From Minisyncoccia bacterium (GTDB taxonomy: Bacteria; Patescibacteriota; Minisyncoccia; Phycocordibacterales; UBA9973), in assembly GCA_041737125.1 (NCBI GenBank), contig JBGSSJ010000011.1, forward strand, positions 33,568 through 97,567: DNA of 64,000 nt, given 5' to 3'. Positions 17,936 to 50,149 of this stretch are shown one piece after another. The notes under the pieces were generated by a model. The model ran no database searches, had not been told where the DNA came from, and was given only the letters and a program-made list of their open reading frames with translations. The translations under genes were made by a program, and so were the position numbers. Numbering within the stretch: position 1 is the first letter of the stretch; every line of letters starts with the position of its first letter.

Positions 17936-17940
17936 AATTA

Positions 17941-18876: not shown

Positions 18877-19876
18877 TTAGGCTATCATGCGCTTTCTGTA
18901 TGATATATCTATTGTATCTTTTAATAAGTCTTTTACCTCCAAAAAATATTACTATGAATATAACGAGTAGACATATTAGCAATTGCCATGGGAACACAAA
19001 GAAGAAAGCGTACTTACTAGTATGAATACTATTTGTACCGTATTCTAAGCTAAGTTTTGCGAAATAAGGTCCGAATGCATAGTTCTGCCATTGATAAAGT
19101 GCATCACTGAAAAACTTTTCAATTTTATTATCTGGACTAATGAAGTCATTACTACGTGGATTCTTCACCCAATCAATATCAAAGCGTCTTGTTGAATTAG
19201 GTAGGATGTTACCATTGGTGGGATTCGCATCAATACTATCTTCTGGTATGTATAGTAAGTCATGCATTCTTATCTTCCCAACTGGTTTAATTCTATCCCC
19301 ACCATCGTTTTTAAATCTATAAGTAAAAGAAACAGGCAGAGTATTATAGAAAACTTTATTATCTAGTGTATCAAAGCTTATCAATCCCCCAGCCTCTTTT
19401 ACGTCACCAGAGACAGATAGGAGTATCAGCATGCCTACTTTTGCTCCAATAGAGACTGCAGATGCACCTGTCCCGGTCGGATTAGTACCCCAGAAAATAG
19501 CAGCAAAGTGTCCTCCCGGGGTTGCATTTTGTGGAATATTAATTAATACAGGGACGATAACACTACCTCCAGGTGGCAGTGCGACAGATTCCTGTACAGA
19601 AATCCATTTATCCAAATCCTCTTTTGATTCTACGAAAGATGGATTACCAGACTCGCCTTGCGCTTCGAAGTTTGCAAAAGAAGAATAGAAAATTTGGTTT
19701 GCATCAGTATCATTAGTAAGAGTCATCTCTTGTTGTATTGTCTCACCTGGATTACCTTTTATCTCTATTCGAGGTGGAGATACAGATATAGCTTCAGCTC
19801 TAAATGTAGAAAAGAAAAATACACCCGATATGACGGCAATCTGTATAAGCATGCGTTTTGTAAATCGGATGTTCAT
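18839..19876 (-). CDS. secreted protein with C-terminal TM anchor (cell-surface; family uncertain, DUF916-like impression only)
   Basis: signal peptide 'MLIQIAVISGVFFFSTFRAEA'; C-terminal TM 'WQLLICLLVIFIVIFFGG' + basic tail. Confidence 0.55.
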   Translation of the reverse strand: MNIRFTKRMLIQIAVISGVFFFSTFRAEAISVSPPRIEIKGNPGETIQQEMTLTNDTDANQIFYSSFANFEAQGESGNPSFVESKEDLDKWISVQESVALPPGGSVIVPVLINIPQNATPGGHFAAIFWGTNPTGTGASAVSIGAKVGMLILLSVSGDVKEAGGLISFDTLDNKVFYNTLPVSFTYRFKNDGGDRIKPVGKIRMHDLLYIPEDSIDANPTNGNILPNSTRRFDIDWVKNPRSNDFISPDNKIEKFFSDALYQWQNYAFGPYFAKLSLEYGTNSIHTSKYAFFFVFPWQLLICLLVIFIVIFFGGKRLIKRYNRYIIQKAHDSLNVSVNKSSNVQE

Positions 19877-19894
19877 TTTTCTTTTATTTAATTA

Positions 19895-20983
19895 TTAGTA
19901 AGTAGCAGTAGCGACGTATGTGTGATTTGCAGTATAAGTTCCTGCTTCTGTTACAGCATCAATGTTTGCAAGGTATCTTAGTGAGTATGTTGTTGTAGCA
20001 GAAGGACCTCCGACACTAGCTAGTGTTACTGCAGTTGATGCAGTAGGAGTCCATGCATATCCAGATGCTGCGAACGGTGCTTGGACGGCACCACTTCCGC
20101 CAGATGCTGTAGCTCTGACTCCGAACTGTTCTGTGGCAGGAGATGAAGCAGTGTTAACTGCTAATGGTGTTATTGTATTTGCTCCTGAAGTAAGAGTTGC
20201 ACCCTGAGCTGTAATTACATATCCTGATGTAGCATTTGTTCCAGCTGTGATATTAAAAGCTTCTGTCTCTGTAGTAGTAGGACAAGTTACGGCTCCAGGA
20301 TCAGTTCCTTGAGCGAAACAGGCACCAGCAGTACGCAAGTTACCGAAGAATACTGTATTGTCAGACAAAGCAAAAGATATACTAGGCACAACTAAAGCAT
20401 TCACCACAACTACATCATCAGATACGATTGGTATACCTATAGTTCCAGTATCAGTGAAAGTTCCAGATATATATAATAGTGTAGTTCCAGCAGAACCGTT
20501 TGTTATCTGTTGATCACCAGTAGCACCCGTAGTAGCATTTGTTCCTATTTCAATAACTATCACACTACCACCAGCTACAGCTGTAGTGCCGTTCGTAAAT
20601 GTAATTACTGTACCTGAAGTGCGAACTACTCCCCATGTCGCAGCAGCGGGAGCAGCAGCGAGAGTCACATCAACACCATCATCAGTTAAATCTATGTCAG
20701 TAAAATCAAGTGGGGCAGGAATACTCGTGGAGTTATCGAATGTAAGTATTATAGTCTGTCCAGAAGCAACACCAGTTGGAGTAGTGAATGTTATAGTATG
20801 GTTTGCTACAGTTGAAGCTTTTTCTGCATTTGTCGCACCTGTTGCAGGTGAGAGCCTATCAGACATAGCGGTAAGAGATGCAGCTTCTGCTACTTTTGTA
20901 AAGTATGGAGTAAAAGAAGTTACACATACGAACATGAACATTAGGACGACGTTGGTAATATTTAAAAGTGTTGATTTTTTCAT
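19895..20983 (-). CDS. secreted Thr/Ala/Gly-rich beta-rich surface protein (paralog A), C-terminus ends in alternating aromatic pattern ...HTYVATATY
   Basis: signal peptide (AEA|AS); paralogous to 21084..22082 ('FGNLRTAG'/'FGNLSAGAS', 'EQFGVRA'/'EQFGLRA', 'YSLRYLANID'/'YSVRYVGNID'). Confidence 0.55.
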   Translation of the reverse strand: MKKSTLLNITNVVLMFMFVCVTSFTPYFTKVAEAASLTAMSDRLSPATGATNAEKASTVANHTITFTTPTGVASGQTIILTFDNSTSIPAPLDFTDIDLTDDGVDVTLAAAPAAATWGVVRTSGTVITFTNGTTAVAGGSVIVIEIGTNATTGATGDQQITNGSAGTTLLYISGTFTDTGTIGIPIVSDDVVVVNALVVPSISFALSDNTVFFGNLRTAGACFAQGTDPGAVTCPTTTETEAFNITAGTNATSGYVITAQGATLTSGANTITPLAVNTASSPATEQFGVRATASGGSGAVQAPFAASGYAWTPTASTAVTLASVGGPSATTTYSLRYLANIDAVTEAGTYTANHTYVATATY

Positions 20984-21083
20984 ATTTAATAAATTTTAAT
21001 AATAAATTACTCTTTAAGTAGATATATTTTACCATATTTTAAAGGTAAAATATACAAAGATAGCTGTTGATAACTATCATAAA

Positions 21084-22082
21084 CTAAAATGTTCCAGTGA
21101 CCACATAATTGATATGAGCTACATAGGCACCCGCTGCTGTATTACTGTCTATATTACCTACATATCGGACTGAGTAGACAGTATTACTATTATCCCCCGC
21201 CCCGCTTGCAAGCTCGTCTGGGAATGATCCAGTATCGAGAGCAAAACCTGAAGCAGCATATGGCGAAGTTACAGTGCCTGTACCACTAGTTACACTTGCG
21301 CGTAATCCGAACTGCTCTGTCCCTACGCTTGGAGCAGTATTTGTACCACCGATAGCATCTATAGTATTGCCTCCATATGTAAGAGTAGTTCCATCCACAG
21401 ATAGAACGTAGCCACTAGGCGCATTTGTACTAGCAGAAATTGTATGCGCCTCGACTTCGGTACCACTTCCAGTACTTGTATCTGCATATCTCGACGCTCC
21501 GGCTGATAAATTACCAAAGTTTACAGTATTAGCGGAAATTGAGAAATTAATACTAAGTGGAATAATAGTAGCACAAAGCTTGCGTGTATAAGCCGAACCA
21601 TCACCCAATGTGGCATTATCAGAGCCGGACAAAGATAGAAGTGTTGTATCGTAGCCAGAACAATTGTTGTCTTGATAGCCACTTGATATCTCATTTGCGG
21701 TGACAGAATCAGAAAGACAGACATTAGAGCCATAAGTATTCACACTTGTCTCTTGCATGTGGGCATTCGTCGCCGAAGAAATTCTTCCTAGTATTTCATA
21801 GTTACCACTACAAGAGTTCCCTATCGACAAAATACCAGTACAACAGACAACATTATTATCATAATTAACGTTGGATTGGCTGGGTAATTCTGCATGAGCA
21901 TTAGTCGAACCCGACATACGAAGTATTACAGTTCCCGTACAAGAGCCCACGGTCGTAACCGAGCAAGTAAGTGCACCATAAGCATAAGATGTAGGTATCA
22001 TAATTAATAAAGCCAAAAATAGAGACAAAATAGTTCCCGAAATTTTATCTTTTTTAGTTTTATCAATTATGTTTAAAAACAT
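21084..22082 (-). CDS. secreted Thr/Ser/Gly-rich surface protein (paralog B), C-terminus ...INYVVTGTF
   Basis: signal peptide; paralogy to 19895..20983 as above. Confidence 0.55.
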   Translation of the reverse strand: MFLNIIDKTKKDKISGTILSLFLALLIMIPTSYAYGALTCSVTTVGSCTGTVILRMSGSTNAHAELPSQSNVNYDNNVVCCTGILSIGNSCSGNYEILGRISSATNAHMQETSVNTYGSNVCLSDSVTANEISSGYQDNNCSGYDTTLLSLSGSDNATLGDGSAYTRKLCATIIPLSINFSISANTVNFGNLSAGASRYADTSTGSGTEVEAHTISASTNAPSGYVLSVDGTTLTYGGNTIDAIGGTNTAPSVGTEQFGLRASVTSGTGTVTSPYAASGFALDTGSFPDELASGAGDNSNTVYSVRYVGNIDSNTAAGAYVAHINYVVTGTF

Positions 22083-22090
22083 TTTATAGA

Positions 22091-22504
22091 CTATTGCTCG
22101 TCCAAAGGCACACTCTCTGCATTATTCTTTGTATTTAATGGAGCAATATTAATTATCTTATTTGCTACAGGATCAAACAATATAGCCTTTTTAGCATTAC
22201 TATATATGAGGACTTTATAACCAACTTTTGAATCTGCAAAGAATGCCTGATCTCGAAGTGCTTCTGGATCAGAGACCGTAGCTATGGTCGGAGTCTCACC
22301 TTCTGGAAGAAGTACAATTCTACCTACTTTTTTTGAAAGACTCTGTGCTTCAGCCATAGATTCTTGAACACTAGTATCTAAAAGCTTACTCTGTTTATAG
22401 AAGTAGACTGCTGCCACCCCCAATCCTATTACCAAGATAATAAGGATAAATAAGATATATTTTTTTAACAATGTATTTTTCATATTTATAATTCTATTAC
22501 ACAA
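22091..22504 (-). CDS. small N-terminally membrane-anchored hypothetical protein
   Basis: TM 'ILFILIILVIGLGVAAVYFY' then soluble domain; likely true start at MKNTLL (22483). Confidence 0.5.
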   Translation of the reverse strand: MCNRIINMKNTLLKKYILFILIILVIGLGVAAVYFYKQSKLLDTSVQESMAEAQSLSKKVGRIVLLPEGETPTIATVSDPEALRDQAFFADSKVGYKVLIYSNAKKAILFDPVANKIINIAPLNTKNNAESVPLDEQ

Positions 22505-23542
22505 TTACAATTTATTCAACCTACTATCTTTACCTATCTTTTCATAGAAAAAGTGAGAGATTTGTTTAATGATATTTTGTTGCTTATTTAAGTCGTTACC
22601 TCGAGTCATCACGCACAATATGTATGGCGCCTCCAAATGATATACAATACCGCAGTCGTGCAACTGAATTATATCTTCCTTTACATTTTTAAAGTCAGTA
22701 GGAAAACGCTCACCATATTTATGTGCAACTTTTATTTTATTTGGAACACCGGCCACTAATCCATCATGATAATTGTTTTCTGAAAGTATTTTTAATACTG
22801 TTTCCGAATGTTCTCTATTCAAATATGAAGCATTGAAAAGAATACGATAAAATGATGCCATATCCTTAATTCGTAGGAATATTTCATTATCTTGATTTAC
22901 ACGAACAACGCCAATATTGAGAAAAGTATTATCAATATATTCTTTTGGGATCTGTTCATATAGCATTGCAGTTGCGACATTGTCTGAATTCTTAATCATT
23001 TTTTCTGCAAGCACAGCGAGCGAGTACGGTTGACCAATTTGAATATCTGTAGGCTCTGAATTTATCTGATCTGGAATGTTAGAGAAAAACCGCTGTTCCG
23101 CAATAACCACTTTGGAGAGAGCTGAAGGTGTAGTTTCTGACCATTTATAAAGAGCAATGATAAGTGGTGTCTTAAGCATACTTGCAGGTGTAAAGTATTC
23201 CTTTTCATTTATACCTATCCATGGACCATTATTCAAATCTCGAAAGTATACAGATATGTGATTAATATATTTCTCTTCTTGAATTTTTTCTACAAATCTT
23301 CGCACCTCGCTAGAATCTAGCATAGCCTCTGAAGAAGATGTGGATAGCTCGAAATCAAGAATAGGATTAGTAAACTTATATTCCCCACCCTTCTCTCTCG
23401 TAATAGTTCCCTTTGTTTGATTCTTAAGATTTATGATTCGTGCTTGCTGAACTATAATTATGACCAAAAATACTATTGCTATCGTGCAGAAAATAGTTGT
23501 TTTCTTATTCAAGCTATTTTTATTTATTTTGGGTATTGCCAT
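22505..23542 (-). CDS. membrane-anchored class A beta-lactamase-fold serine hydrolase (PBP/beta-lactamase family)
   Basis: N-terminal TM; S-x-x-K 'PASMLKTP', SDN 'KNSDNVATAML', KTG-like 'HKYGE'. Confidence 0.65.
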   Translation of the reverse strand: MAIPKINKNSLNKKTTIFCTIAIVFLVIIIVQQARIINLKNQTKGTITREKGGEYKFTNPILDFELSTSSSEAMLDSSEVRRFVEKIQEEKYINHISVYFRDLNNGPWIGINEKEYFTPASMLKTPLIIALYKWSETTPSALSKVVIAEQRFFSNIPDQINSEPTDIQIGQPYSLAVLAEKMIKNSDNVATAMLYEQIPKEYIDNTFLNIGVVRVNQDNEIFLRIKDMASFYRILFNASYLNREHSETVLKILSENNYHDGLVAGVPNKIKVAHKYGERFPTDFKNVKEDIIQLHDCGIVYHLEAPYILCVMTRGNDLNKQQNIIKQISHFFYEKIGKDSRLNKL

Positions 23543-23544: not shown

Positions 23545-26500
23545 TTAATATTCTGAGACTGTAGTATTATCAGTATTTTCTTCTATTATAAGTGGTGCTT
23601 CCACAGTTACTTTTGGGCTCGGAACAGGCGTACTCTCCTCTATTATAGGTGCGGGTTCATCTGGAGAAGTTACTTCCTCAATAATTATTTCCTCAGTTAC
23701 TATTTCGGGTACTAGTTCAGTAGAGGGATTTTCCGGTGATGGGACATCATCTTCTTGGGGTACTTGTTCTAGAGGAGCTTCTGTAGGTATTTCTATGTCG
23801 AGTCCTTCTACTAGACTCTCTACAATTTTAGGATCTTTTACGCCTAATGCTACCCAAGAGAAGCGTATATCCCGAGGTGCTTTCTTATTCAAGAATATTG
23901 TGAACCCTGTTTGATCTTTCTCTACCACTAGGTGGCGTACATCTTCGAAGAAGAATGCTTCAGCAGTGGCATCATCCATATTATCTGTAACCTCAAATGT
24001 AATATTTGTGGTTATCACAGGCGTGGTCACATAAGGCTCATCGAATACTACTCGCACTCGTCGGTCTTCCTCTTTTATAAGAGCAAAACCTGCTGTATCT
24101 TTGTTAAATATTGGTGGGATAGTGAACTCTGTCTGTGCACCGAAGACTACAGAGCCATCAAATGTAGTACTATTGGCAAAGAATGAAAGTCCACTAAACT
24201 GTGCTTTGCCTTCGAAAGTACTCTCTCCTGTTGCTTTGAAATTTGCTGTAGTTACTGATGTGAGTGCATCAAATGCATTTGCTCCGAGCAATGTTTCAAG
24301 TGCAGTGATTCGCTCAATCAGCGCATCAAAACCAGCAATTTTAGTAGCTTCAATTTCTTGTGCAGTAATTTTACCATTAAATACTGCATTTCCGAGTGCA
24401 TCAATAGTCATAACCGCAGCATCTTCACTATTTTTCTTTACAGAGAAGATTCCATTATTAAGAACAAGCGCGAGTGATCCATCTATTCCCCCAGTGAGCT
24501 GGCTTGTCACTACAGTATCAGCAATAAGTGTAGGTGTAAGAATTTCAAACCCAGCAGCAATTCTATCTGTGAAGAAGCTCTCTAGTGGAAGAGCGTTTGT
24601 CTCCTTGTCATCACGTGTTGCACGCAAGAATGACATGATAGACCATTGTGTTCCAAGCTCTGCTGTAAGTCCATCAACTGAAACATGGCCGTCTTCTATA
24701 GAACCATATTCTTGTGCAAGAATCTCTACATTTTGACCAAGTGATTCTCCAAGCCCAACAAAGAGCATAACATATCCGCACTGTATTCCTGTTGATGATT
24801 GCACTTGTTCTCCTTGCGCTTCACCTTCTACACGCTCTCCACCTACCCATGGACCTTCAGGAAGAGCAACATTTTCAAGTGCTGGAAGAGGGGCATCGCA
24901 TGAAGTCATTCCGTATGGCTCATTGAGTACACGACCTATCACTGCTCCGGCTGAAGTCGCGCGCATTGCATATCCTTCACGGGAAGACGAGGTGAGGAGG
25001 TCACCTACCTTTATAGGGCCATTTTCTGTCGTTACCTTAACAGGTACACGACCGGAGAGCGCAACAGCGTATGCATTTTCTGCTACAGGTCCTAAAATAA
25101 GTCCTGGTCGTGTGGAAATAACACCGAGCAGATTCTTTTGATACCTTCGAGAAGACTTACCAATTCCAGCTTCTTGACTTGGTTCAATGGAGACGACATC
25201 GCCTGCCTCAAGTGTTTCATTTGAGTAATAGTACTCAGCAAGGTCGGCTCCTTGACCGAGACCAAGCACATCTTGTGTGGCCCCAAAGAGACCACTAGCC
25301 ACCAAACTCATTCGAACATCCTCAAGAGCAAGGAGCGTATCTGCTTGGAGTTGTTTTATACTTACATCTTTTCTTTCTACTCTGATACCTGTACCAGTGG
25401 CAAACAAGATAGTATCCGTATATATAGCTATTGATTTTATGTCATCAGAACCAGTACCACTCCACGTAGTACCAAAATCATCTTCTTCAATACCAGAATC
25501 ACTACTATGCACTTCTGTTTTAATTCCTCCTGCCCCAGCATTTGTAAATGTTGAAATTCCTCCACCATCTGCCCCATCATCAGTACCAACATACAAACTA
25601 CGAGTCTTGTTAATTTGTGTAGGGGCATCAACAGCAATAGAGGTTACGTTATTTGTAGATCCATAGAGCTTAGAAGGAGAAACTCGGTAATCACTTGTTG
25701 CATCTGGTGTGACCGACCATGCAGGCGCCACAGTAAAGGCAGTTGCATCATTTGAAATAATATTTCTTGTTTGTCCAGCCCCAGTTCCTCCAGTGATTTC
25801 AACAACAAGCGAAGTAAATGAATTTGGAACATAGGTTGCAGTCGTACTTCCTATTGTCGTTCCACTGAAAATATCAGCATTCTCAACGGAGGTTTGTGGT
25901 CGTATGAGATGTGTTCGTCCATCAAGGAAGCGTCTATTTGCAGAAGCAGAAACGGTACCTGAAGATGTCGTTGCACCTGCACTCCACGTGAATTCATCAA
26001 TTTCTCCATCCCAGAAACTATCCCCTGTGGCGCAGTTAGCCCCAGTACATCGGCCACCAATGGTGAGCACTTGTGCTGCGTCAAGTGTTGCTGTTGCTGC
26101 AAGAGCTGTATCACACGCAGCTGCCAAGCGTCCGTCTATATACATACATAAGTCTGTGTCAGTATTCGTAAGCAAGAAATGATGCCACTGACCATCGTTC
26201 CATGTTCCAGAAGAAGTCAAACCGTCATCCATCGACAAAGTTCCCACAGTTGTCCATGTCCCATCATCATCAATACCTGCAGTGATAGTTCCTGTAGTTG
26301 TCATACCAGCATAGATACAAGCGGCAGCTGTAGGAGTTGCAGGAGTATAACATCGCTCAAAGAGCACATCAGCTGCTGCGGTCGTTGAATGTTTAAACCA
26401 AAGCGAAACCGTAAAGGAAGTTGCTGCAACGTTGTTGTCTGTATCACTGTCACACGTGCCGTCCGCATTGGCATCACTACAGAGGTACGAGTTATTATTG

Positions 26501-29500
26501 AAATTCACTGACCCTCCTCGAATACCATTACCTCCAAATGTTGGTGCTGTTGCGCCTGCTTGGTCAAGTGGATTTCTGGTCGTCCCCGTATTTCCAACCG
26601 CACTATTTGTAGATGTCGCACCTACTGCATCATCAAAAAGGTACGCTGAACGGACTCCTCCATTCATATACGGAGTTGCACTATCCTTCGTTGTGATCTT
26701 TGACCATGAGGCATTCGCAAGTGCACCTCCTGATGTGTGCACTTCTGCAAGACCTTGGTTTGTACCGACAAACACAATATCACCTGAGTCAATCTGTCCC
26801 GCTGCAGCAGCTTCCCTTGCAGCAGAACCACGCTCAATCACTGCAAGAGCGCTCGGTGAAGTCGAAATAGTGGGAACAGCCCCCTCAAGTGTAATCGGCG
26901 TATTCCCGGCGAGTGTTTCGTCATACCATCGTGTAGGAGTTCCGTTTGCCTGTGTTGTTATCACCGTATCTACTCCGCGCCATTCTTCAAGTTGAGCGCG
27001 CGTTTCATTCGTCGCATACATACGACCACGCTTAGTCATGTACACCTGATTGTAGTCATCATTTGTTGCATCAGAATAGTTGATGACCTTTCGTGCTCCC
27101 ATATTGATAACAGACACTCCAGAGTCAGTAGCAGCTGCAATAATAGTGACTCCAAGCATTGGTCCTCCTTGAGAATCAACTGGCGCAATAAGTGTACCCG
27201 CTCTTCCTTCCATGGATCCAGTCTGAACATTTACTGACACATCATTGACTGTGTTGTTGATAATAGCAAAACCTGTCTCTGCATTAGCAGCATACGTGGC
27301 AGTTGAATTTCGATTGCCAATATTTATATCTGCTTGAGTCCTGTTTGTAGTGTTATATCTATATAGAACATCTTGTTTAAAATCAAATGCATATAAACCT
27401 GTAGCAGAAGCCCCGTTTGTACCAACATAAATAACACCATTTTGAGCAGTTACTCCAGAGGGGTTGTTGTTAGTATCTGCACCGAGTGCATAGGTGCCCG
27501 CTTGAGTAAACTTCATCCAAAGTGAATTATCAGCACTGTCAAATATATACAGTCCATCAGCAGTCGTAGCAATAATAGCCTTACGAGGAAAGGCTGAACT
27601 TCCACAACGATCATCAGTTGAGATACTACATGCATCTCCTGCCCCATCGTCTTTAGCCTCAGTTGCCCAAGATCTTTGCATCATCTCTAGAGAGTTACGC
27701 CACTCACCTGCATCAACATCAACAGATGTATCGTATATAAATGTATCTATAACCCCAGTGAGACTCCGTGCAATAGTTCCCCCTTTTACAATAAGGTCTC
27801 CATATACAAGTGCATTACCACGACTTATAGCGGTACCGACTTGGAAAATATCGTTGGTTGTTGAAGATCCATCAGAGAGAACAAGTGTTCCGTTATCTGC
27901 AAGTGTCATTTGTGGAGTTGCATCAATAAATCTGATGTCGCTATCCCATCCAGAACCAATCACAAGTGCATTCTCTGTTGCTGCAGTACCTGTGATGTTT
28001 GCGATATTTAAACCATTAAATGTCTCATCACCTGATGGTGTGTTTACTGGAATGAGTGTAATGTTGAGTCCTGAGTTTGTGTTTGTTGTTCCGTTTCCGA
28101 CTTCCATTGCAATAGAGAGCCCATCGACTCCGTCAGTGACTATCCCTGTTGTTCCACCAGTTAAATTTACTACCATCGAGTCGGCGGTAGGTATAACATT
28201 GTTCGCAGTGTTCTGTATAGTGATAGAGCCCAAGGTTGAAGTGTTGCCGGAACTATCTATCTGGAAGAGGTCACCGTTACCAACAGTAAAGAGTGATGCG
28301 GGTGATGCATCTCCGATACCGACGTTACCATTATTAAAAATAAAACCATTACTAGGACTATCACCATTTACTGCTAAATACACACTAGAACCATTACCAC
28401 TAAAATCACCTATGTAAACATTATCTAAGGCTTCAAGATAAATATTTCCACTGGACGCTCCATTCGTAACGTCTAAAATACCTCTAGGAGCTATAGTTCC
28501 TATACCTACCCTCCCGCCCATATCTGGCACCAACAAGGCATAATTATCCGTCCCTCCTGTTGCACTTGCATATAACGCTACATTAGTAGATGACGTTCCT
28601 GTTTTAACATTGGTAAAATAACCACCATAGGTCGTTTGAGTTGAAGTAGCGTTTGCACCCGACTGTGCGACTTCAAATATTTTCTGTGCATTTGATGCTG
28701 CAGCAGTAGAAGTAGACGAGAGTTTGAGTCCTGTTGCGCCCGCGAGTGTATTCCATTGCCATTCTTGAGTGTAGTCCGCATTGTTGATAGTGTTGGTAGC
28801 TCCTGCTGCAGAGAGACTAGAAAGTGCAACCGCTCCTCCACAAGAAGCAACTGAAAGCGTTCCTGATCCGTTTGACTGGAGACATCCAGATGCATCTGCA
28901 GCAGGAAGAGTCCATGTGTATGACGCAGTAACAGCAGCGGGAGCTTGGAGTGCTGCAAAGTCTGTCCCTCCTCCTGTTTCGACAAATCGCAAATCAGCCC
29001 CTGCAAAGAGTGATGTGTTCCCTGATCCATCTACTTGGAAGAGGTCGCCGGAGCCGACAGTGAAGAGTGAAGCGGGTGATGTGTCTCCAATCCCCACATT
29101 CCCACTATTAAGTATCCTCATCGCTTCAGTGGCTCCGTTGTTCCCCGTCTGGAAAATAATATCTGCACCTGTTGTTCCCACTCCTGAAGTTGAGCGAAGC
29201 GTTAGTGGAGATGTAGTAGTGGTACCTCCGATAACAAGTGGTGTGGTGATGTCTGTGGTGAATGTTGGAGATGTAGAGAAGACAGCAAGGCCAGAACCAG
29301 TTTCGTCTGTGAGAGCGCTTGCTAAGTTTGCAGATGACGGAGTAGAGAGCCATGTAGAAATTCCACTACCGAGTGTGGTTACAGAAAGTGCACCTGTTCC
29401 TCCTGATGTAGTAACAAATCCATTCGTAGAAAGTCCTGAGAATGTGATACTACCACTTGATGTGATACCTGTGGCTGCAATAATTGCTCCTGTACTATCT

Positions 29501-32500
29501 ACTTGAAATTGAGATGTGGAGCCGACGGTGAACGCTGAGTCAGGTGTGACATCTCCGATACCCAGATTTGCTGCTTCATTCCTAAAATAACTATTACCGT
29601 TTGCATTCAAAACAATTACAGCAACTCCATTTCTTTGAATATCAATACGACCTTGATCTGAGTTTCCATTATAAAGCCTGACTACTCTTCGTGATGAGTT
29701 TGCCCCTTCGACATACAATTCACTCCCTTTAGAAAGTCTGACATTGCCTCCCACATCAAGTTTCTCTGCAGGTGAAAGACCAATACCGACGTTTCCACTA
29801 TTAAGTATCCTCATCGCTTCCGTCGCTCCATTGTTCCCTGTTTGGAAAATAATATTTGCACCTGTTGTTCCCACTCCTGAAGTTGAGCGAAGTGTCAGTG
29901 GTGATGTTGTAGTTGTTCCTCCGATAATAAGTGGAGTGGTGATGTCTGTGGTGAAGGTTGGAGATGTAGAGAAGACAGCAAGGCCAGAACCAGTTTCGTC
30001 TGTGAGTGATCCTGCAAGGTCTGCAGAGGTGAATGATCCTGTCGCTGTACCATAAAGTGTACCTGATGTTGGGAGCGTAACATTTGTTGTACCTGTAGAG
30101 GTAAATGTAGTATTAAATGCACCAGAGGTAGTGAGCGCTCCTCCGAGGGTAATTATTTTACCTGCACTATTGTTCACACCGGTACCTCCGTTTGTTGGAG
30201 AGAGAAGTCCAGAGACAGCAGACGACGAAGCGATGTTGATAGCTCCAAATGCAAGTGCAGTACCTCCCCCATTAAGACGAAGGACTTGGTTCCCTGTACC
30301 TACGATATCAGCTACATCTCCTGTTGTGTTTGTTTCTCTACCGATGACTGATACTCCTGCAGACTGTCTCAATTTCCCGTCAGTAACAGTATTTGCATCG
30401 ATAGTCATTACTGTTCCTGTTCCTGATACTGTTATATCGCCGTAATCAAGATCAGAGAGCCCACCACTCACCGCGCTCCAGCTTCCATCTCCCCTTAGGA
30501 ACGTTGATGCACTAGGTGTCCCCGTGATAGCTGATGCAAAGATAGGAAGTGTGTTTGATGCAATCTTTTCAAAAACGCCAGTTCCAGTATTACGAGTGAT
30601 GAGATCGTATGAGCCTGCTGAAGTTGTAGGTGTTGTGGAGAGCGTGAGAGTTCCGGATGATGTGATACCTGTGGCTGCTGTAATAGCACCACCAGAAGTG
30701 ACTTGGAATTGTGCAGCAGAGCCTACGTTGAATAATGAAGTTGAAGTAGTAGAACCAATAGTGACATTACCACTTGCCTCAATTCTCATTTTTTCACTTC
30801 GCGTAGTAGAGTTATTCGCAGTTGTCTCAAATCGGAGACTTGTTCCATATGCAGAACCATCACTCCACGCTTGAGAAGTATATGCAGCAATACCAGCAGT
30901 AGAGCGCAGTGGTTGTGCCCCCGAAGAAGACCCTCCAAACAATACGCCCCCCAATCGATCAAGTGAAGACATTGCTCCCCCGTCATTACTATAGAGCCCT
31001 ATGAGTGCGCCAGCAAAAGCACCTGATGCGCCTCTACTCTCACCGGCAAACACAAGACCTGACGTAGCCCCGCTGGACGAAACAGATACAGATTCAGTCC
31101 CCACAACAGAATCGAACGATGAGTGTGTTGCACCGAGCGTTAGTTTGGATACAGGACTTGCTGTCCCTAATCCCAACCTATCATTCGTATCATCCCAAAA
31201 GAAATTCGCATTGTCTTGAACGATTGTTGTACCGTTTGAGAATAGTACTGAACCGGTAGTTAGTGATGGAAGTGTGAACTTTGCATTGATTTGTGATTGT
31301 ATTCCTGAAGTCACCCCTTTGACATATGATATTTCTGTGAGTGATGGATATGTTACAGTTGCAAGTGAACCTAGAGTATTTGTTCCACTCCAGTAGGTCA
31401 GTTCGTTTGCAACCCCTGTACCAACGGAGGTGAGGTATGTACTTGAATCTAGTGATCCATCACCTTTAATAAAGTCTGTACTGGCACCTATACCAGTGGA
31501 AGTTAAGTTCTTGGATGCATCAGTGAATACAACCTTTGATGCTGTGAGGCCAGAGAAGTTGATGGTTCCTGATGATGTGATACCGGTAGCCGCGGCGATG
31601 GCACCGGAGGAGTTGACTTGGAAGAGGTCGCCAGAGCCGACAGTGAGCATCGCTGCAGGAGTAGTGTCGCCAATACCAACGTTACCATCACCACCTATTC
31701 TCATTCTTTCTCCATCTCCAGCACGGAACTGAAGAAAACTTGTCGCATCAGCAGTACCTGAACCATTTCCAGAAACAGAAGTATAACCAGAGTTCGTGCC
31801 GAAATATAAATTCTGGTTAAACCCAACACCTACAGATCCGGTAAATGTACCCGCACCAGTAACAGTAAGCGGAAAAGTCGGCGTGTTCGTCCCGATACCG
31901 ACGTTTCCAGCATTTACAATGAGCCCATAGTTAGCAGTTGTAGCTCCTGATGCATCTAAGTAGAGAGCTACGTTTGTACCTGAGGTAGCATTTGTTTTCG
32001 TGTTTGATATTTGCGCACCGTACGTAGTGATAGCATTCGTAGATGTTGCACCGGAAGTGAGGATATTCAAACCAGTTTGTGACGCGCCTGCGTCGGTGCC
32101 TGAGATTTGAATATCAATTAATCTTCCCGATGTAAGACTTGATGAAGCAAGATATGCACCAGTACCTGTAGTAAGGGAGTTGAAGTTTCCTACTAATGCT
32201 GATGCTGTGGTAGCTTGGGTAGTGTTTGCTGAAGTAAGTGCAATTGTGCCTGTAGTAGTGAGTCCCGTTGCTGCCACAATAGCACCGGTCGAGTTCACCT
32301 GAAATGCATCACCTGAGCCCACAGTAAGCATGGACGCTGGTGATGGGTCACCGATACCCAAAGATGCTGCAGCGTTTACAAAATAGCTATCTCCACTTGC
32401 ATTAAGTCGGATATTAACAGCTCCGTCTCTTTGGATATCAATCATTCCTTGACTCAACCCTCCACTGTTATACAAACGAACAGCGCGTCGTGCAGGAATA

Positions 32501-33294
32501 GTCCCCTCGATATAAAGCTCACTTCCTGGAGAAAGTCTGACATTCCCCCCGACATCAAGTGTCTCTGATGGTGATGAAGCAACGTTAACTCCCAATCTGT
32601 TTGTTGAATCATCCCAAAAGAAGTTTGCATTATCTTGTGCAATGGTACTGCCATCAGAGAAGAGGACTGATCCTGAAGTTAGTGATGGAAGTGTGAACTT
32701 TGCATTGATTTGTGATTGTATTCCTGAAGTCACCCCTTTGACATAAGAAATTTCTGTGAGTGATGGATAGGTTGCAGTTGCAAGAGAAGAGAGAGCACCT
32801 GGACCCGAGAAGTATGCAAGCTCATTCGTAGTACCTGAGCCAGATAAACTTCCACAAGCCCCCCATGATGGAGCAGATCCAGTATTACCGATAAGACACT
32901 CACCAGTAATACCTGCAGCAGTGACTCCCATAGCGGAAGTACCGTTACCGTAAATAATTCCGTTGGAAGTAAATGTCCCTGCACCAGTTCCTCCTTGAGC
33001 TACAGTCACAAGTGCATTCGTAGTGAGGATGGTCGCATTCGCATCAGGGAAAGTATAAGTACGGACTCCTGTCTGGTTGTTGGTAACAGCGAAAACTCCA
33101 TCTCCAAGCTCTGCCCATGGGTGGCCTGGGTTCGGTGTCGCTCCACTTACTATTCCGAAAATAGAAAAGGCAACAAAGATAGAAAGTATCGTATACACGA
33201 CATAGTGTATAGAAAATTTAGGAGCAATTTTCCTTAAAATTCTTTGTACGAAATTTGAAATTTGTTGCTTGTAATTTTTAAACATAAAATACAA
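23545..33294 (-). CDS. giant (3249 aa) N-terminally TM-anchored surface protein: tail-fibre-like Gly/Thr/Ser repeat modules, LamG domain, C-terminal lectin-like domain and Pro/Glu-rich tail
   Basis: single uninterrupted ORF; N-terminal TM 'YVVYTILSIFVAFSIFGIVSG'; recurrent 'GNVGIGxxxPxxxLTVGSGDxFQVxSxGAI' modules; LamG 'FTVSLWFKHS...MYIDGRL...WDGEIDEF' (~25960-26420); C-terminal 'RVRVVFDEPYVTTPVITTNITF...FSWVALG' (~23830-24130). Confidence 0.8.
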   Translation of the reverse strand: MYFMFKNYKQQISNFVQRILRKIAPKFSIHYVVYTILSIFVAFSIFGIVSGATPNPGHPWAELGDGVFAVTNNQTGVRTYTFPDANATILTTNALVTVAQGGTGAGTFTSNGIIYGNGTSAMGVTAAGITGECLIGNTGSAPSWGACGSLSGSGTTNELAYFSGPGALSSLATATYPSLTEISYVKGVTSGIQSQINAKFTLPSLTSGSVLFSDGSTIAQDNANFFWDDSTNRLGVNVASSPSETLDVGGNVRLSPGSELYIEGTIPARRAVRLYNSGGLSQGMIDIQRDGAVNIRLNASGDSYFVNAAASLGIGDPSPASMLTVGSGDAFQVNSTGAIVAATGLTTTGTIALTSANTTQATTASALVGNFNSLTTGTGAYLASSSLTSGRLIDIQISGTDAGASQTGLNILTSGATSTNAITTYGAQISNTKTNATSGTNVALYLDASGATTANYGLIVNAGNVGIGTNTPTFPLTVTGAGTFTGSVGVGFNQNLYFGTNSGYTSVSGNGSGTADATSFLQFRAGDGERMRIGGDGNVGIGDTTPAAMLTVGSGDLFQVNSSGAIAAATGITSSGTINFSGLTASKVVFTDASKNLTSTGIGASTDFIKGDGSLDSSTYLTSVGTGVANELTYWSGTNTLGSLATVTYPSLTEISYVKGVTSGIQSQINAKFTLPSLTTGSVLFSNGTTIVQDNANFFWDDTNDRLGLGTASPVSKLTLGATHSSFDSVVGTESVSVSSSGATSGLVFAGESRGASGAFAGALIGLYSNDGGAMSSLDRLGGVLFGGSSSGAQPLRSTAGIAAYTSQAWSDGSAYGTSLRFETTANNSTTRSEKMRIEASGNVTIGSTTSTSLFNVGSAAQFQVTSGGAITAATGITSSGTLTLSTTPTTSAGSYDLITRNTGTGVFEKIASNTLPIFASAITGTPSASTFLRGDGSWSAVSGGLSDLDYGDITVSGTGTVMTIDANTVTDGKLRQSAGVSVIGRETNTTGDVADIVGTGNQVLRLNGGGTALAFGAINIASSSAVSGLLSPTNGGTGVNNSAGKIITLGGALTTSGAFNTTFTSTGTTNVTLPTSGTLYGTATGSFTSADLAGSLTDETGSGLAVFSTSPTFTTDITTPLIIGGTTTTSPLTLRSTSGVGTTGANIIFQTGNNGATEAMRILNSGNVGIGLSPAEKLDVGGNVRLSKGSELYVEGANSSRRVVRLYNGNSDQGRIDIQRNGVAVIVLNANGNSYFRNEAANLGIGDVTPDSAFTVGSTSQFQVDSTGAIIAATGITSSGSITFSGLSTNGFVTTSGGTGALSVTTLGSGISTWLSTPSSANLASALTDETGSGLAVFSTSPTFTTDITTPLVIGGTTTTSPLTLRSTSGVGTTGADIIFQTGNNGATEAMRILNSGNVGIGDTSPASLFTVGSGDLFQVDGSGNTSLFAGADLRFVETGGGTDFAALQAPAAVTASYTWTLPAADASGCLQSNGSGTLSVASCGGAVALSSLSAAGATNTINNADYTQEWQWNTLAGATGLKLSSTSTAAASNAQKIFEVAQSGANATSTQTTYGGYFTNVKTGTSSTNVALYASATGGTDNYALLVPDMGGRVGIGTIAPRGILDVTNGASSGNIYLEALDNVYIGDFSGNGSSVYLAVNGDSPSNGFIFNNGNVGIGDASPASLFTVGNGDLFQIDSSGNTSTLGSITIQNTANNVIPTADSMVVNLTGGTTGIVTDGVDGLSIAMEVGNGTTNTNSGLNITLIPVNTPSGDETFNGLNIANITGTAATENALVIGSGWDSDIRFIDATPQMTLADNGTLVLSDGSSTTNDIFQVGTAISRGNALVYGDLIVKGGTIARSLTGVIDTFIYDTSVDVDAGEWRNSLEMMQRSWATEAKDDGAGDACSISTDDRCGSSAFPRKAIIATTADGLYIFDSADNSLWMKFTQAGTYALGADTNNNPSGVTAQNGVIYVGTNGASATGLYAFDFKQDVLYRYNTTNRTQADINIGNRNSTATYAANAETGFAIINNTVNDVSVNVQTGSMEGRAGTLIAPVDSQGGPMLGVTIIAAATDSGVSVINMGARKVINYSDATNDDYNQVYMTKRGRMYATNETRAQLEEWRGVDTVITTQANGTPTRWYDETLAGNTPITLEGAVPTISTSPSALAVIERGSAAREAAAAGQIDSGDIVFVGTNQGLAEVHTSGGALANASWSKITTKDSATPYMNGGVRSAYLFDDAVGATSTNSAVGNTGTTRNPLDQAGATAPTFGGNGIRGGSVNFNNNSYLCSDANADGTCDSDTDNNVAATSFTVSLWFKHSTTAAADVLFERCYTPATPTAAACIYAGMTTTGTITAGIDDDGTWTTVGTLSMDDGLTSSGTWNDGQWHHFLLTNTDTDLCMYIDGRLAAACDTALAATATLDAAQVLTIGGRCTGANCATGDSFWDGEIDEFTWSAGATTSSGTVSASANRRFLDGRTHLIRPQTSVENADIFSGTTIGSTTATYVPNSFTSLVVEITGGTGAGQTRNIISNDATAFTVAPAWSVTPDATSDYRVSPSKLYGSTNNVTSIAVDAPTQINKTRSLYVGTDDGADGGGISTFTNAGAGGIKTEVHSSDSGIEEDDFGTTWSGTGSDDIKSIAIYTDTILFATGTGIRVERKDVSIKQLQADTLLALEDVRMSLVASGLFGATQDVLGLGQGADLAEYYYSNETLEAGDVVSIEPSQEAGIGKSSRRYQKNLLGVISTRPGLILGPVAENAYAVALSGRVPVKVTTENGPIKVGDLLTSSSREGYAMRATSAGAVIGRVLNEPYGMTSCDAPLPALENVALPEGPWVGGERVEGEAQGEQVQSSTGIQCGYVMLFVGLGESLGQNVEILAQEYGSIEDGHVSVDGLTAELGTQWSIMSFLRATRDDKETNALPLESFFTDRIAAGFEILTPTLIADTVVTSQLTGGIDGSLALVLNNGIFSVKKNSEDAAVMTIDALGNAVFNGKITAQEIEATKIAGFDALIERITALETLLGANAFDALTSVTTANFKATGESTFEGKAQFSGLSFFANSTTFDGSVVFGAQTEFTIPPIFNKDTAGFALIKEEDRRVRVVFDEPYVTTPVITTNITFEVTDNMDDATAEAFFFEDVRHLVVEKDQTGFTIFLNKKAPRDIRFSWVALGVKDPKIVESLVEGLDIEIPTEAPLEQVPQEDDVPSPENPSTELVPEIVTEEIIIEEVTSPDEPAPIIEESTPVPSPKVTVEAPLIIEENTDNTTVSEY
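29095..29335. repeat. ~235-bp intragenic direct repeat, copy 1 (copy 2 at ~29755-29995, ~90% identical)
   Basis: encodes duplicated block 'LTDETGSGLAVFSTSPTFTTDITTPLIIGGTTTTSPLTLRSTSGVGTTGA(N/D)IIFQTGNNGATEAMRILNSGNVGIG'. Confidence 0.8.
31262..31326. repeat. 65-bp 100%-identical intragenic repeat (second copy 32681-32745) within ~230-bp diverged repeats
   Basis: agtgatggaagtgtgaactttgcattgatttgtgattgtattcctgaagtcacccctttgacata in both places; encodes 'SYVKGVTSGIQSQINAKFTLPSLT'. Confidence 0.85.
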
Positions 33295-36603: not shown

Positions 36604-39582
36604 TTATTTGTTTTTATATATCTCTGATTTTTTGCAATATTCGCATTCTGACTGCTCGCCTCCGTAAGGCTTGAAGTTACATGTGCGAGTAGTCCAGCCA
36701 CCAGATGAAAGTGCTTTGTCATAGTCACTTATATCACGCACAAGTAAATCTATCTCCTCTTGTGTTACTTTGCCACTATAAACTGCATTTTTATCTTTAT
36801 GGTCAACTTCGAGGAATAGTAATTTCGACTGTGTGACATTCTGCCCCGTGAGTAAATACGAATACATAGCAAGCTGACGCATCAAGGTACTTAGTCTACC
36901 TTCTTCATCACGCTTCTCTATCATACCCTTTGTCTTTGAGCTACCAGTTTTGAAATCTGTCACAGTTATACCCCCATCATAATTCTCGGTTAAGTCTATT
37001 TTGCCGTACATTTTCAAGTGAGGGAAATTCTTATCGTGGTACGACACAGAGCGCTCCGTCATGTAACTACTATGTATGTGTGGATAGTAATTGCGCGCCC
37101 AATTTGTTAATATCTTTTTCGCATTTTTATTTATTCTTTGTCGTAATGATTTATCTTTAACTATTTCTTTATCAAGAGCATTTTCTACTATCTCTCCGAG
37201 AACTTTATCTGTGACTTTTATTTTATCTTTTAATATTTTCTCTATACTTATATGCACCACACTACCCAAAGTTAAGCTCTCAGTCTTCGGCGTTGGAAGC
37301 TGGAGGAAGCTATTGAAATACCATTTCCACGGACACTCGAAAAAGTTATTAAGTAGTGTCACAGACACATTCTTATCCATATACTCTTTAGCGACGATAT
37401 CTGCTAACTCCTTCATCCCTACTATTTCTTTCTGTGAATTATTCTCTATATAAGTAAGTGGATTTTCCCCGCCTATTATTTTTATCGAATCCTCAACTTT
37501 ATTCTGTTTGATATTCTTCTCACCTATTTCTCCGATAATGCGAGCGACAGTAAGCGTACTACCAGAGAGTGAAGTTTGCGCATATGACACAGTGCAATGC
37601 CTTTTCGCCCTTGTAATTGCTACATAAAGTTCTCTTTTGGCTGTTAATTCATCTTTCGTTTCAACTATATTCTCTATTGATTCAGGCAGGATAAAGCCTC
37701 TTCTCCTACCGTTCATCAAGCTGTTCTCATTCATGTGAGCTATGTGAACTACATCAAATTCAAGCCCTTTCGAAGCATGGAGTGTCATCACATTTATACC
37801 TGATTGCACTCCAATTGTCGCAAGTGGTATGTGGTGATTGTATGATTCTAATCTATCTAAATATTCGATGAACTCGCCAAGAGTTGTATGTGGATGTTTC
37901 TCTATGTGTGATAATGCGAGGTGCAAATATGTGCGAATCACTTCCGCGTATCGTACTAGCTCATCATGCTCCCCTGTTTTATCTATGAAGAATTCTTTCC
38001 CTATCAATTGTAATAATGTGTAAATATCTCCGTTCTTATTTATCTCCATAAAAGATTCCAGACTTTTACCAAGAGCTCTTATAGGATTACTATCTGAGAA
38101 TAAATCTACACTATTATCTTTTGTATATTTAGTAAAATCTTCAACAGAAAGATTCCTGGTGTTGGTAGACTTTAGAAATGCGTGAGCTTCAAGCGGTGCA
38201 ATACTAGAGTTGGGTATGAATAATAATTCACCTAAAGCCACGCTATCATAAGGATCATTTATGGCTTTCAGAATATTTTTCAAAATATAAGTCTCATTCA
38301 TATCGAAGAACGAGCTATTGTTACCGACGGATACAGGAAGACCCATGTCTTTGAGTATTCTTACAGCAGAGCGTACATTCCTATTCTTCGGCACGAGCAG
38401 TGCACAATGACTAGGCTCTACACCATTATCAATATGACTTTTGAATAATTGACCTGCGAGCAGTACTTCATCACGCTCATATTCACAAGTGTAGAGCTCA
38501 ACAATAGAACTTTCTTTCGTATTACTTATGAGCTTACCTTCGGCCATTGTGCTCGTAAGTAGTACATCTGCAGTATCAAGAATGTCTTGAGTAGAGCGAT
38601 AATTATCCACAAGTGTTATCAGGTGCGCTTTACCAAATGAACTTTTGAATTCTTCAAAGAATGTGACCGATGCTCCTCCGAAGCCATAGATAAGCTGGCG
38701 GTCATCCCCCACTACGAATATATTCGGTCGCTCAACTTCACTCCAAATTGTTTTGAGGAATTGATTCTGTATACCACTCGAATCTTGATGCTCATCTATT
38801 AGGACATACTGACTATTCTCTTGTATCTCGGACTTCACATCATCTGAAATATTTATAATATTGAGCGCATAAGCAAGCACATCATCGTAATCCATGTAGC
38901 CTTGTTCCCTTTTCGTCTTCTCATAAATGGCATAAAATGTTACTGCTTCTTTGGATCGCAACAACGACTCTATCTTCTTCTCCACTTCCTTTTTCAGTTG
39001 ACCCTTACTCTCGCCTCGGCTAGAAATACTTTCAGGATCATTCTCTATAATTTTTATCTCCTCATCGATCATCTTACCGAAACTTTCTGCCGTAATAGAC
39101 TCACGCTTCAATAATGATATTAGTGACTTTAAATCATGGAAATATTGTGATGGGTTATTACGAGGACGCAAGTACTCCCACTCATTCTTGTGTAGAATTT
39201 CATCAAAAAGTAAAACAGAGTCTTGCTCATCGATAAGGATAGGCATAGATTCCATATCAAGAAGAGCATAGTGCTTCTCTACAATTTTCTGTGCAAAGCT
39301 ATGGAAGGTAGAGACTTGGACTTCACCTGATGCTTCACCGATATATTTCTTCAGACGTTCGCGCATAGCAAAGACTCCGGAATTCGTAAATGTCAGACAT
39401 AATACTCCATGTGGACCAATGTCTGTTTTTATCAATATGTTTGCAATACGAAGAGCGAGTACTTCTGTCTTCCCTGTACCTGGGCCTGCCACTACCATCA
39501 CAGGGCCATCGATAGTATCCACAGCTTCTTTCTGTTTGTTATTGAGCATTTTATAGGATTGTTCGAAAGTCGCCTTATGCAT
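36604..39582 (-). CDS. UvrD/PcrA-family SF1 helicase fused to C-terminal RecB/Cas4-like PD-(D/E)XK nuclease with Cys cluster
   Basis: N-terminal 'MVVAGPGTGKTEVLALRIANIL' (motif I); C-terminal 'ITVTDFKTG' nuclease motif and Cys pattern FECPW...C-x11-C-x2-C. Confidence 0.75.
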   Translation of the reverse strand: MHKATFEQSYKMLNNKQKEAVDTIDGPVMVVAGPGTGKTEVLALRIANILIKTDIGPHGVLCLTFTNSGVFAMRERLKKYIGEASGEVQVSTFHSFAQKIVEKHYALLDMESMPILIDEQDSVLLFDEILHKNEWEYLRPRNNPSQYFHDLKSLISLLKRESITAESFGKMIDEEIKIIENDPESISSRGESKGQLKKEVEKKIESLLRSKEAVTFYAIYEKTKREQGYMDYDDVLAYALNIINISDDVKSEIQENSQYVLIDEHQDSSGIQNQFLKTIWSEVERPNIFVVGDDRQLIYGFGGASVTFFEEFKSSFGKAHLITLVDNYRSTQDILDTADVLLTSTMAEGKLISNTKESSIVELYTCEYERDEVLLAGQLFKSHIDNGVEPSHCALLVPKNRNVRSAVRILKDMGLPVSVGNNSSFFDMNETYILKNILKAINDPYDSVALGELLFIPNSSIAPLEAHAFLKSTNTRNLSVEDFTKYTKDNSVDLFSDSNPIRALGKSLESFMEINKNGDIYTLLQLIGKEFFIDKTGEHDELVRYAEVIRTYLHLALSHIEKHPHTTLGEFIEYLDRLESYNHHIPLATIGVQSGINVMTLHASKGLEFDVVHIAHMNENSLMNGRRRGFILPESIENIVETKDELTAKRELYVAITRAKRHCTVSYAQTSLSGSTLTVARIIGEIGEKNIKQNKVEDSIKIIGGENPLTYIENNSQKEIVGMKELADIVAKEYMDKNVSVTLLNNFFECPWKWYFNSFLQLPTPKTESLTLGSVVHISIEKILKDKIKVTDKVLGEIVENALDKEIVKDKSLRQRINKNAKKILTNWARNYYPHIHSSYMTERSVSYHDKNFPHLKMYGKIDLTENYDGGITVTDFKTGSSKTKGMIEKRDEEGRLSTLMRQLAMYSYLLTGQNVTQSKLLFLEVDHKDKNAVYSGKVTQEEIDLLVRDISDYDKALSSGGWTTRTCNFKPYGGEQSECEYCKKSEIYKNK

Positions 39583-47501: not shown

Positions 47502-47504
47502 TTT

Positions 47505-47609
47505 TTTCTAAGCAAAGTCAGAATAATTTTACCAGAGGGGCTGGTGAGGCTCGACGGAGCGAACAATGAGGAAATTTCTCCCAAGAAATTTCCGGACCCT
47601 CTGGGAAAG
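47505..47609 (-). promoter_or_regulatory. structured intergenic element, copy C (long imperfect inverted repeat enclosing AAATTT-type hairpin), upstream of purB
   Basis: gcaaagtcagaataattttaccagaggg ... ggaaatttctcccaagaaatttcc ... ccctctgggaaagttattttgactttgc. Confidence 0.5.
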
Positions 47610-48581: not shown

Positions 48582-48585
48582 TATT

Positions 48586-49626: not shown

Positions 49627-49627
49627 G

Positions 49628-50140: not shown

Positions 50141-50149
50141 ATTATTTTT

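Follow-up and report, generated by a model that had tools for sequence, protein, structure and literature searches.

Introduction

Several described systems of repetitive fibres and surface proteins resemble the locus analysed here, a 9.7-kb gene with intragenic repeats in a 64,000-nucleotide (nt) stretch of DNA (the window; positions 33,568 to 97,567 of contig JBGSSJ010000011.1, assembly GCA_041737125.1) from a Minisyncoccia bacterium, an ultra-small member of the Patescibacteria. In phage fibres it is usually the receptor-binding tip, at the distal end, that varies. Exchange of gp37/gp38 at conserved motifs in T-even phages was reportedly described by Tetart et al. in 1998, and gene shuffling in fibres of the P2/Mu type is said to have been described by Haggard-Ljungquist et al. 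in 1992. Among cellular surface proteins, the Periscope Proteins (SasG, Rib and Sgo_0707) are built from tandem, near-identical folded domains and vary in length from strain to strain (Whelan et al. 2021, PMC8201768); the similarity of their repeats at the DNA level has been proposed to drive intragenic recombination (PMC8201768). A surface protein of Gracilibacteria (BD1-5) carries a PTD repeat encoded by a tandem 9-nt (tripeptide) microsatellite that is heterogeneous from cell to cell (Sieber et al. 2019, 10.1101/595074). Giant repeat-rich genes of Omnitrophota and other lineages encode membrane-anchored, extracellular proteins with a proposed role in cell-cell interaction, and their repeats fragment assemblies (West-Roberts et al. 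2023, 10.1101/2023.11.21.568195).

That large surface proteins contain intragenic repeats is already well known, and finding them in one more gene is ordinary. What the present comparison adds is a family-level picture, a strictly conserved and largely unannotated head behind a 13-fold length-variable stalk of tail-fibre modules joined at one motif. We hold with moderate confidence that the repeats are paralogous modules of phage-tail-fibre type, located in the length-variable N-terminal stalk of an N-anchored giant surface fibre that is probably trimeric and conserved across Patescibacteria.

Results

Repeat pairs within the giant gene

The gene and its repeat copies are listed below, with positions in the window and in amino acids (aa) of the open reading frame (ORF).

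23545..33285, minus strand: giant gene, 3246 aa from the ATG at 33285 (ORF list and translation)
29780..30027, minus strand: pair 1, copy A1, aa 1090-1171, tail-fibre-type module 'TDETGSG...NSGNVGIG'
29087..29334, minus strand: pair 1, copy A2, aa 1321-1402, 693 nt (231 codons) downstream of A1 in the gene
32590..32842, minus strand: pair 2, copy B1, about aa 152-240, module '...PSLTEISYVKGVTSGIQSQINAK...FFWDD'
31171..31423, minus strand: pair 2, copy B2, about aa 625-713, 1419 nt (473 codons) downstream of B1 in the gene
32677..32745, minus strand: identical tract of 69 nt, 23 consecutive identical codons, partner 31258..31326

The listed ORF spans 23545-33294 (minus strand) and opens with TTG at 33294; the actual start is the ATG at 33285, and the product is identical to the 3246-aa database protein P0177. 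An earlier note on this DNA, made by reading the sequence, had described two pairs of long direct repeats in the gene. Blastn self-comparison of the gene, a repeat finder and pairwise alignments all confirmed them, and both pairs are real and far beyond chance. Pair 1 (29087-29334 versus 29780-30027, offset 693 nt) is 89.5% identical over 248 nt (E 1.8e-92). Pair 2 (31171-31423 versus 32590-32842, offset 1419 nt) is 84.9% identical over 199 nt (E 1.9e-60) or 78% over 253 nt. In self-alignment the pairs, at 89.5% and 78-85%, thus lie above the ~70% identity that the note had set as its threshold.

Some details needed adjustment. The ~90% identity given for pair 1 held, but its second segment, placed at 29755-29995, was about 30 nt out of register and lies at 29780-30027. 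The 75-aa block said to be the same in both copies is present with 2 differences, and the full shared peptide is 82 aa long with 5 differences. For pair 2, diverged repeats of ~230 bp had been proposed around an identical core of 65 bp; such repeats exist, with the two extents given above, and the core measures 69 nt (31258-31326 = 32677-32745). This tract and a run of 50 nt in pair 1 are the longest perfect matches, and the 53-nt centre of the tract occurs exactly twice in the window. Weaker related copies were also found, among them 32348-32574 and 29552-29775 (68% nt and 63% aa identity).

Because the offsets of 693 and 1419 nt are multiples of 3, recombination between the copies would stay in frame. 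The repeats are dispersed, and Tandem Repeats Finder reported no long-period array. We rejected a tandem-repeat or microsatellite mechanism and a simple-sequence contingency locus because the only arrays found were trivial ones of 40 nt or less.

A length-variable stalk ahead of a conserved core

Comparison with orthologues divides the protein into the following parts.

33139..33207, minus strand: predicted N-terminal signal/membrane anchor HYVVYTILSIFVAFSIFGIVSGA, ORF aa 30-52, a hydrophobic segment behind a basic stretch
28225..33138, minus strand: variable N-terminal 'stalk', aa ~53-1690, a mosaic of recurring modules in self-comparison
23695..28224, minus strand: conserved core or 'head', aa ~1691-3200, 50-79% identical across Patescibacteria orthologues and with no internal DNA repeats

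Using the non-repetitive central region as the probe, we recovered 21 orthologous loci, 17 of them in metagenome-assembled genomes (MAGs) from a genome collection (most labelled Patescibacteria, three Bdellovibrionales) and 4 on unlabelled metagenome contigs. Homology to the window protein starts sharply at about aa 1691 (window ~28224) and runs to about aa 3200, while the sequence ahead of that point has practically no collinear similarity to the orthologues. The N-terminus is non-collinear even in P0178/L006, where the core is 79% identical. In P0179, with a core 74% identical (85% in the probe segment), the N-terminus is similar in length and different in content. The whole N-terminal 1,690 aa of the window protein looks like a cassette replacement when these sequences are compared. 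P0178/L006 and P0179 also have a common 'INFQGRL...' N-terminal domain that was not found in the window protein.

Among 36 complete representatives of the family, defined by a Met start, a hydrophobic N-terminal segment and a full core, the region ahead of the core ranges from 252 to 3,293 aa (median 699), whereas the core plus C-terminus spans 1,376-1,606 aa. Stalk length thus differs 13-fold across the family, and the hydrophobic segment predicted to anchor the window protein has a counterpart in all 36.

Orthologues with long N-termini hold intragenic repeats of their own, built from other module types. A pair in L010 is 99.4% identical over 339 nt (dS, synonymous divergence, 0.011), one in L003 is 98.5% identical over 341 nt (dS 0.056), and weaker pairs in L018, L013 and L009 reach dS 0.73. 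All intragenic repeats of these five loci lie in the stalk and none in the core. Such independent repeats in other lineages show that module duplication or conversion is recurrent and lineage-specific.

The ~340-nt pairs of L003 (gene nt 1847-3867) and L010 (824-2845) have near-equal spacings of 1680 and 1683 nt, and L003 has a further pair spaced 690 nt, near the 693 nt of the window. The two loci come from different species, and conserved super-module lengths may underlie these similar spacings. At the 3' end of the gene in L021 (5395-5576) there is a 96% identical tandem duplication with an 84-nt period, situated in an acidic, proline-rich C-terminal tail; the tail of the window protein (aa ~3170-3249) is likewise of low complexity.

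Age of the copies and a candidate conversion tract

Synonymous (dS) and nonsynonymous (dN) divergence was estimated by the Nei-Gojobori method.

Pair 1: dS 0.34-0.36, dN 0.012-0.038, dN/dS 0.04-0.10
Pair 2: dS 0.6-0.8, dN 0.08-0.19, dN/dS 0.13-0.23
Orthologous cores, window versus L006, L001 and L018: dS 1.6-2.0, dN 0.17-0.20, dN/dS about 0.10

In pair 1, 20 of the 26 differences fall at third codon positions. This bias and the synonymous divergence show that the duplicates are not fresh and that the protein modules are strongly constrained. The proportion of synonymous differences (pS) is 0.27 between copies versus 0.66-0.70 between orthologous cores. By these estimates the copies are old duplicates under strong purifying selection, yet far younger than the divergence from the closest relatives that have been sequenced, which indicates that they arose by intragenic duplication or conversion after the lineage had separated from those relatives.

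In pair 2, 25 of 68 codons for the same amino acid differ synonymously, and a run of 23 identical codons was reached in none of 20,000 permutations (P<5e-5). The 69-nt tract is best read as a candidate for short-patch gene conversion between B1 and B2. The same permutation test on pair 1 gave no significant conversion signal (P=0.09). We considered two other origins. Structured RNA as the cause of the 69-nt identity was rejected, as the tract has no Rfam family and no unusual RNA folding, and a template/variable pair of a diversity-generating retroelement was rejected on the mixed substitution spectrum and on finding no reverse transcriptase among the scanned ORFs.

Recombination frequency drops steeply with divergence and requires tens of perfectly identical bases, and the substrates of high-frequency switching are 98-100% identical tandem arrays. 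The window copies are 10-22% diverged, dispersed and long coexisting under purifying selection, and would therefore be poor substrates for a fast RecA-dependent switch.

Stalk modules and their junction motif

Self-comparison of the stalk resolved two further module copies.

32221..32574, minus strand: module C1+D, aa 241-358, directly after B1, paralogue of aa 1174-1290 (63% aa, 68% nt)
29425..29775, minus strand: module C2+D, aa 1174-1290, directly after A1

Module C alone covers aa 241-300 and 1174-1242. The presence of the same C+D module type in different contexts, after B1 and after A1, is evidence for module shuffling. A shorter recurring element in the N-terminal ~1,700 aa is centred on 'GNVGIGDxSPASLFTVGSGDLFQV'. 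The junction motif G[IVLT][GN]x0-3[ST]Px3[LMF]x[VL] occurs 9 times in the stalk (aa 235, 313, 466, 540, 708, 1170, 1245, 1401 and 1659), against 0.0065 expected from shuffles, and is absent from the core. It stands exactly at the 3' end of B1, C1, B2, A1, C2 and A2, and again about 20 aa ahead of the conserved core. Module C comes next after B1 and A1, but not after B2 and A2, and the occurrence of different modules behind one junction motif indicates that modules have been joined combinatorially there.

Module A has about 1,950 homologues, mostly of 300-630 aa, a set that consists of proteins about 0.6-1.75 times the query length and so says nothing on giant multi-domain relatives. Many of them also carry Peptidase_S74, Gp10_C, K1-lyase_C or Mtd_N, and the consensus of about 80 unrelated homologues nearly equals the window sequence. 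Viral contigs of IMG/VR contain the module in 295 stretches, and the aa identity of related modules there reaches 77-88%. In L026 the module-bearing gene matches the tail-fibre PHROGs 1699, 5481, 14572 and 9942 and adjoins virion structural genes. Judged by these matches, the modules are homologous to tail-fibre proteins.

Contig ends within the stalk region

Contig ends fall inside the stalk region in 11 of the 21 orthologous contigs and inside the core in none, where uniform placement would put about 3.7 in the stalk region (P~1e-5). In L002 the same stalk region contains a scaffold gap of 100 N, close to the upstream limit of the open frame. The breaks could be caused by the repeats or by strain heterogeneity. 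The proposal that the repeats are sites of assembly collapse fits the placement of the breaks, but fits less well with the contig ends themselves, for which mostly no repeat was detectable farther into the gene. In short-read MAGs the stalk is a systematic breakpoint, and with 11 of 21 contigs ending there, gene lengths and architectures reported for the family from such assemblies call for caution.

Domains of the conserved head

Within the head, an unannotated, non-repetitive conserved region is accompanied by one curated domain and one autochaperone-like candidate.

25966..26439, minus strand: Laminin_G_3 (PF13385)/concanavalin-like lectin (LamG) domain, aa 2286-2443, Pfam E 3.4e-11, 44 bits against a cut-off of 27.6
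24868..25245, minus strand: autochaperone-like (Peptidase_G2/phage-cement fold) domain, aa ~2684-2809, with the invariant 'GLGQGADLAEYY' motif

Searches with Pfam on eight sub-segments at E<=1 returned nothing besides LamG, NCBIfam returned nothing, and sequence searches of the PDB with the whole protein and with a core profile gave no match. The autochaperone-like assignment comes from homologues of the GLGQGADLAEYY region, 12 of 57 of which match Peptidase_G2 (PF11962; best E 1.2e-5), and from an AlphaFold2 model of the region with a predicted local distance difference test score (pLDDT) above 90. Foldseek with this model retrieved the phi29 gp12 structures 3SUC and 3GQH (E 6e-4, template modelling (TM) score 0.36-0.51) and phage cement proteins (E 1e-4). 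About 440 aa follow downstream of the domain. The name adhesin, which the earlier note gave to the protein, is a plausible label.

Genomic neighbourhood

The neighbours of the giant gene are chromosomal housekeeping genes, namely pheS/pheT, an addA-like gene, an ABC transporter, gyrB, thrS and pur genes, and no phage, prophage or tailocin structural module surrounds it. The orthologues are likewise chromosomal, in 21 Patescibacteria contigs. The guanine-plus-cytosine (GC) content of the gene is 0.43-0.47 versus about 0.36-0.41 in the flanks. As the increase covers stalk and core alike, we do not take it as evidence for horizontal transfer; we provisionally attribute it to the Gly/Ala/Thr-rich composition that is visible in the translation.

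Two genes downstream of the giant gene recur at orthologous loci:

22505..23542, minus strand: beta-lactamase-fold gene, starting 3 nt past the giant-gene stop and kept in 10 of the 21 loci
22091..22504, minus strand: 137-aa ORF with no Pfam match, kept in about 20 of the 21 loci

Together they may belong to one operon or encode partner proteins. Farther downstream (14738-22082, minus strand) is a run of ORFs with no Pfam matches or only weak ones of surface type (Cohesin, fn3_5, Y_Y_Y). Relatives of two of these ORFs stand behind the giant gene in L001, L004 and L018, and the run is a possible cluster of genes for surface proteins. Functions in recombination and repair are represented in this part of the genome by an AddA-like UvrD helicase with a PD-(D/E)XK nuclease domain (36604-39582) and an SMC protein (6021-8297).

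The remainder of the window holds a near-complete de novo purine cluster (46134-58979, minus strand: purB, purC, purM, purK, purD, purF-like and purL), an NDH-2 gene (44882-46129) and a tRNA-Ser(GGA) gene (59039-59126, minus strand), which is the sole Rfam or ARAGORN match in the window. To our knowledge, Patescibacteria are generally described as being without nucleotide biosynthesis, and the purine cluster would be unusual if the genome is that of a Patescibacteria bacterium.

Discussion

Under the reading that we favour, in which the repeats are tail-fibre-type modules of an anchored stalk, homologous recombination between module copies and at junction motifs would add, delete, convert and swap modules over evolutionary time. 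The length and composition of the stalk would be remodelled in this way and the head left untouched; an exchange between the copies in the window would change the protein in frame by 231 or 473 codons. Given identities of only 85-90% and a dispersed layout, we expect such exchanges to be infrequent and not to amount to a fast switch. Recombination and shuffling on the evolutionary scale are supported by the sequence comparisons.

The earlier suggestion that the repeats drive recombination and shuffling can accordingly be kept for evolutionary time, given the conversion tract, the variable stalk and the repeats of other lineages, but not for high-frequency RecA-dependent switching, in view of the 85-90% identity, the dispersed layout and a dS of 0.34-0.8. 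Antigenic or binding variation, the proposed outcome, is unlikely as it was intended. The variable part is the predicted membrane-proximal stalk and the LamG-bearing head is conserved, so the expected phenotype is a change in reach or shaft composition and not in binding specificity.

Several observations weigh against the favoured reading. Apart from the 69-nt tract, there is no direct evidence for any recombination event, and public data hold no strain-level variants, the 90% clusters of P0177 and P0179 being singletons. The truncated contig ends mostly lack a repeat further inside the gene (2 of 11 have one, at only 70-76% identity). Module A had no match by tblastn in deposited genomes of cultured phages. 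AlphaFold2 modelled the repeat region (aa 1085-1440) poorly as a monomer (pLDDT 62, predicted TM score 0.35), which is compatible with an oligomeric fibre but no proof of one. For the autochaperone-like domain the evidence is transitive homology together with fold scores that are moderate (TM 0.3-0.5), and aa 2660-2900 of the window protein have no Pfam match, PF11962 included, even at E<=1. We infer the trimeric state, the surface exposure and the topology with the stalk proximal and the head distal.

The locus might instead be an active length-variation locus of the contingency or 'periscope' type, in which recombination is frequent within the population and yields alleles of different length side by side, with effects on surface interactions or on escape from antibodies or phages. 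The in-frame spacings, a conversion tract showing that copies interact, the huge variation in stalk length across the family and the 340-nt repeats of 98.5-99.4% identity in some orthologues all agree with such a locus, and strain heterogeneity could also be why 11 of 21 contigs break here. The window copies themselves fit it poorly: they are 85-90% identical and dispersed, with a dS of 0.34-0.8 that implies long persistence side by side, their longest perfect runs are just 50 and 69 nt, and public data contain no variants (the 90% cluster is a singleton). Arrays of the Periscope type are tandem and near-identical in DNA (PMC8201768). We therefore consider frequent switching rather unlikely here. 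If the repeats were instead purely structural, with no recombinational role, their likeness would come from extreme constraint on a widespread module or from independent acquisition, for example from phages. This would account for the near-identity of module A to the consensus of about 80 unrelated proteins, for the very low dN/dS and for the abundance of related modules in viral contigs at up to 77-88% aa identity. Yet synonymous sites are similar too (pS 0.27 versus 0.66-0.70 for orthologous cores), which protein-level constraint cannot account for; the copies are each other's closest relatives, at 94-97% aa identity versus at most 88% for any external match; and neither the 69-nt identical tract nor the differing module order at shared junction motifs is expected from it. 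We regard a purely structural origin as distinctly unlikely.

As an artefact, the repeat layout or the 69-nt identity would stem from wrong joins or from consensus polishing during the assembly of short metagenomic reads. In favour of this, the DNA lies on an NCBI contig of 102 kb that probably belongs to a MAG, all relatives are MAGs, orthologous contigs often break in the region, L002 has its N gap there, and repeat-driven fragmentation of giant genes is documented (10.1101/2023.11.21.568195). Against this, the reading frame is intact over 9.7 kb and the differences are concentrated at third codon positions, as real evolution predicts. Ordinary reads can resolve the copies, given their unique flanks and differences at 10-22% of positions, and we judge an artefact to be very improbable.

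Beyond the favoured reading of tail-fibre-type modules in a remodelled stalk, we tentatively raise a broader possibility, doubtful as a whole. The gene may represent an undescribed, Patescibacteria-wide family of cell-anchored fibres assembled from domesticated parts of phage tail fibres, with shaft modules, an autochaperone-like trimerisation domain and a conserved LamG-bearing head of ~1,500 aa. Such fibres would serve episymbionts as a device for host recognition or attachment, with their reach tuned lineage by lineage through recombination of stalk modules at a dedicated junction motif, and the repeats would be the footprint of that process. If the protein does mediate host-cell contact, stalk remodelling would be a simple genetic route by which episymbionts adapt reach or envelope compatibility, and the conserved head would be a candidate handle for studies of host attachment.

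Comparison with described systems

Like the PTD-repeat protein of Gracilibacteria, which has a single N-terminal transmembrane segment and an extracellular repeat region, the giant protein comes from the candidate phyla radiation and has a predicted N-terminal anchor ahead of a repeat region that is probably extracellular. In both, the peptide is conserved and nucleotide variation tends to be synonymous, almost exclusively so in the PTD repeat, and the PTD repeat broke its assembly as the stalk repeats may do. The units differ, being dispersed, domain-sized modules of 200-250 nt here. The giant genes of Omnitrophota likewise encode very large, anchored extracellular proteins and fragment assemblies, but they have other domain content, belong to another phylum, and no homology to them was detected.

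The C-terminal autochaperone of the phi29 gp12 appendage (Peptidase_G2; 3GQH, 3SUC) is tentatively linked to the GLGQGADLAEYY domain by fold similarity and transitive homology, as are phage cement proteins. By analogy, this likeness suggests chaperone-assisted trimerisation of the giant protein. Unlike the gp12 domain, the window domain fails the Pfam model and is followed by ~440 aa.

Mosaic phage tail fibres resemble the giant protein in being fibrous and in having recurring modules that are common to unrelated genomes and joined at short conserved motifs. They differ in that the giant gene is chromosomal, with housekeeping neighbours, and its product has a predicted N-terminal membrane anchor in place of a baseplate-attachment domain. 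The polarity is also opposite to that of phage tail fibres, as the ~1,500 aa predicted to be distal are the conserved part of the giant protein.

With the Periscope Proteins, whose stalk projects a functional domain from an anchor, the giant protein has in common a length-variable, repetitive stalk, which would project the LamG-bearing head in a like manner. It is set apart by its predicted N-terminal anchor and a conserved head towards the C-terminus, and by repeats that are dispersed, heterogeneous and 78-90% identical and do not form a tandem array of identical units. Periscope Proteins vary between strains, whereas stalk variation is documented here only between species. As analogies, we take the Periscope concept to be the closest in function and the mosaic phage tail fibre to be the closest in evolution.

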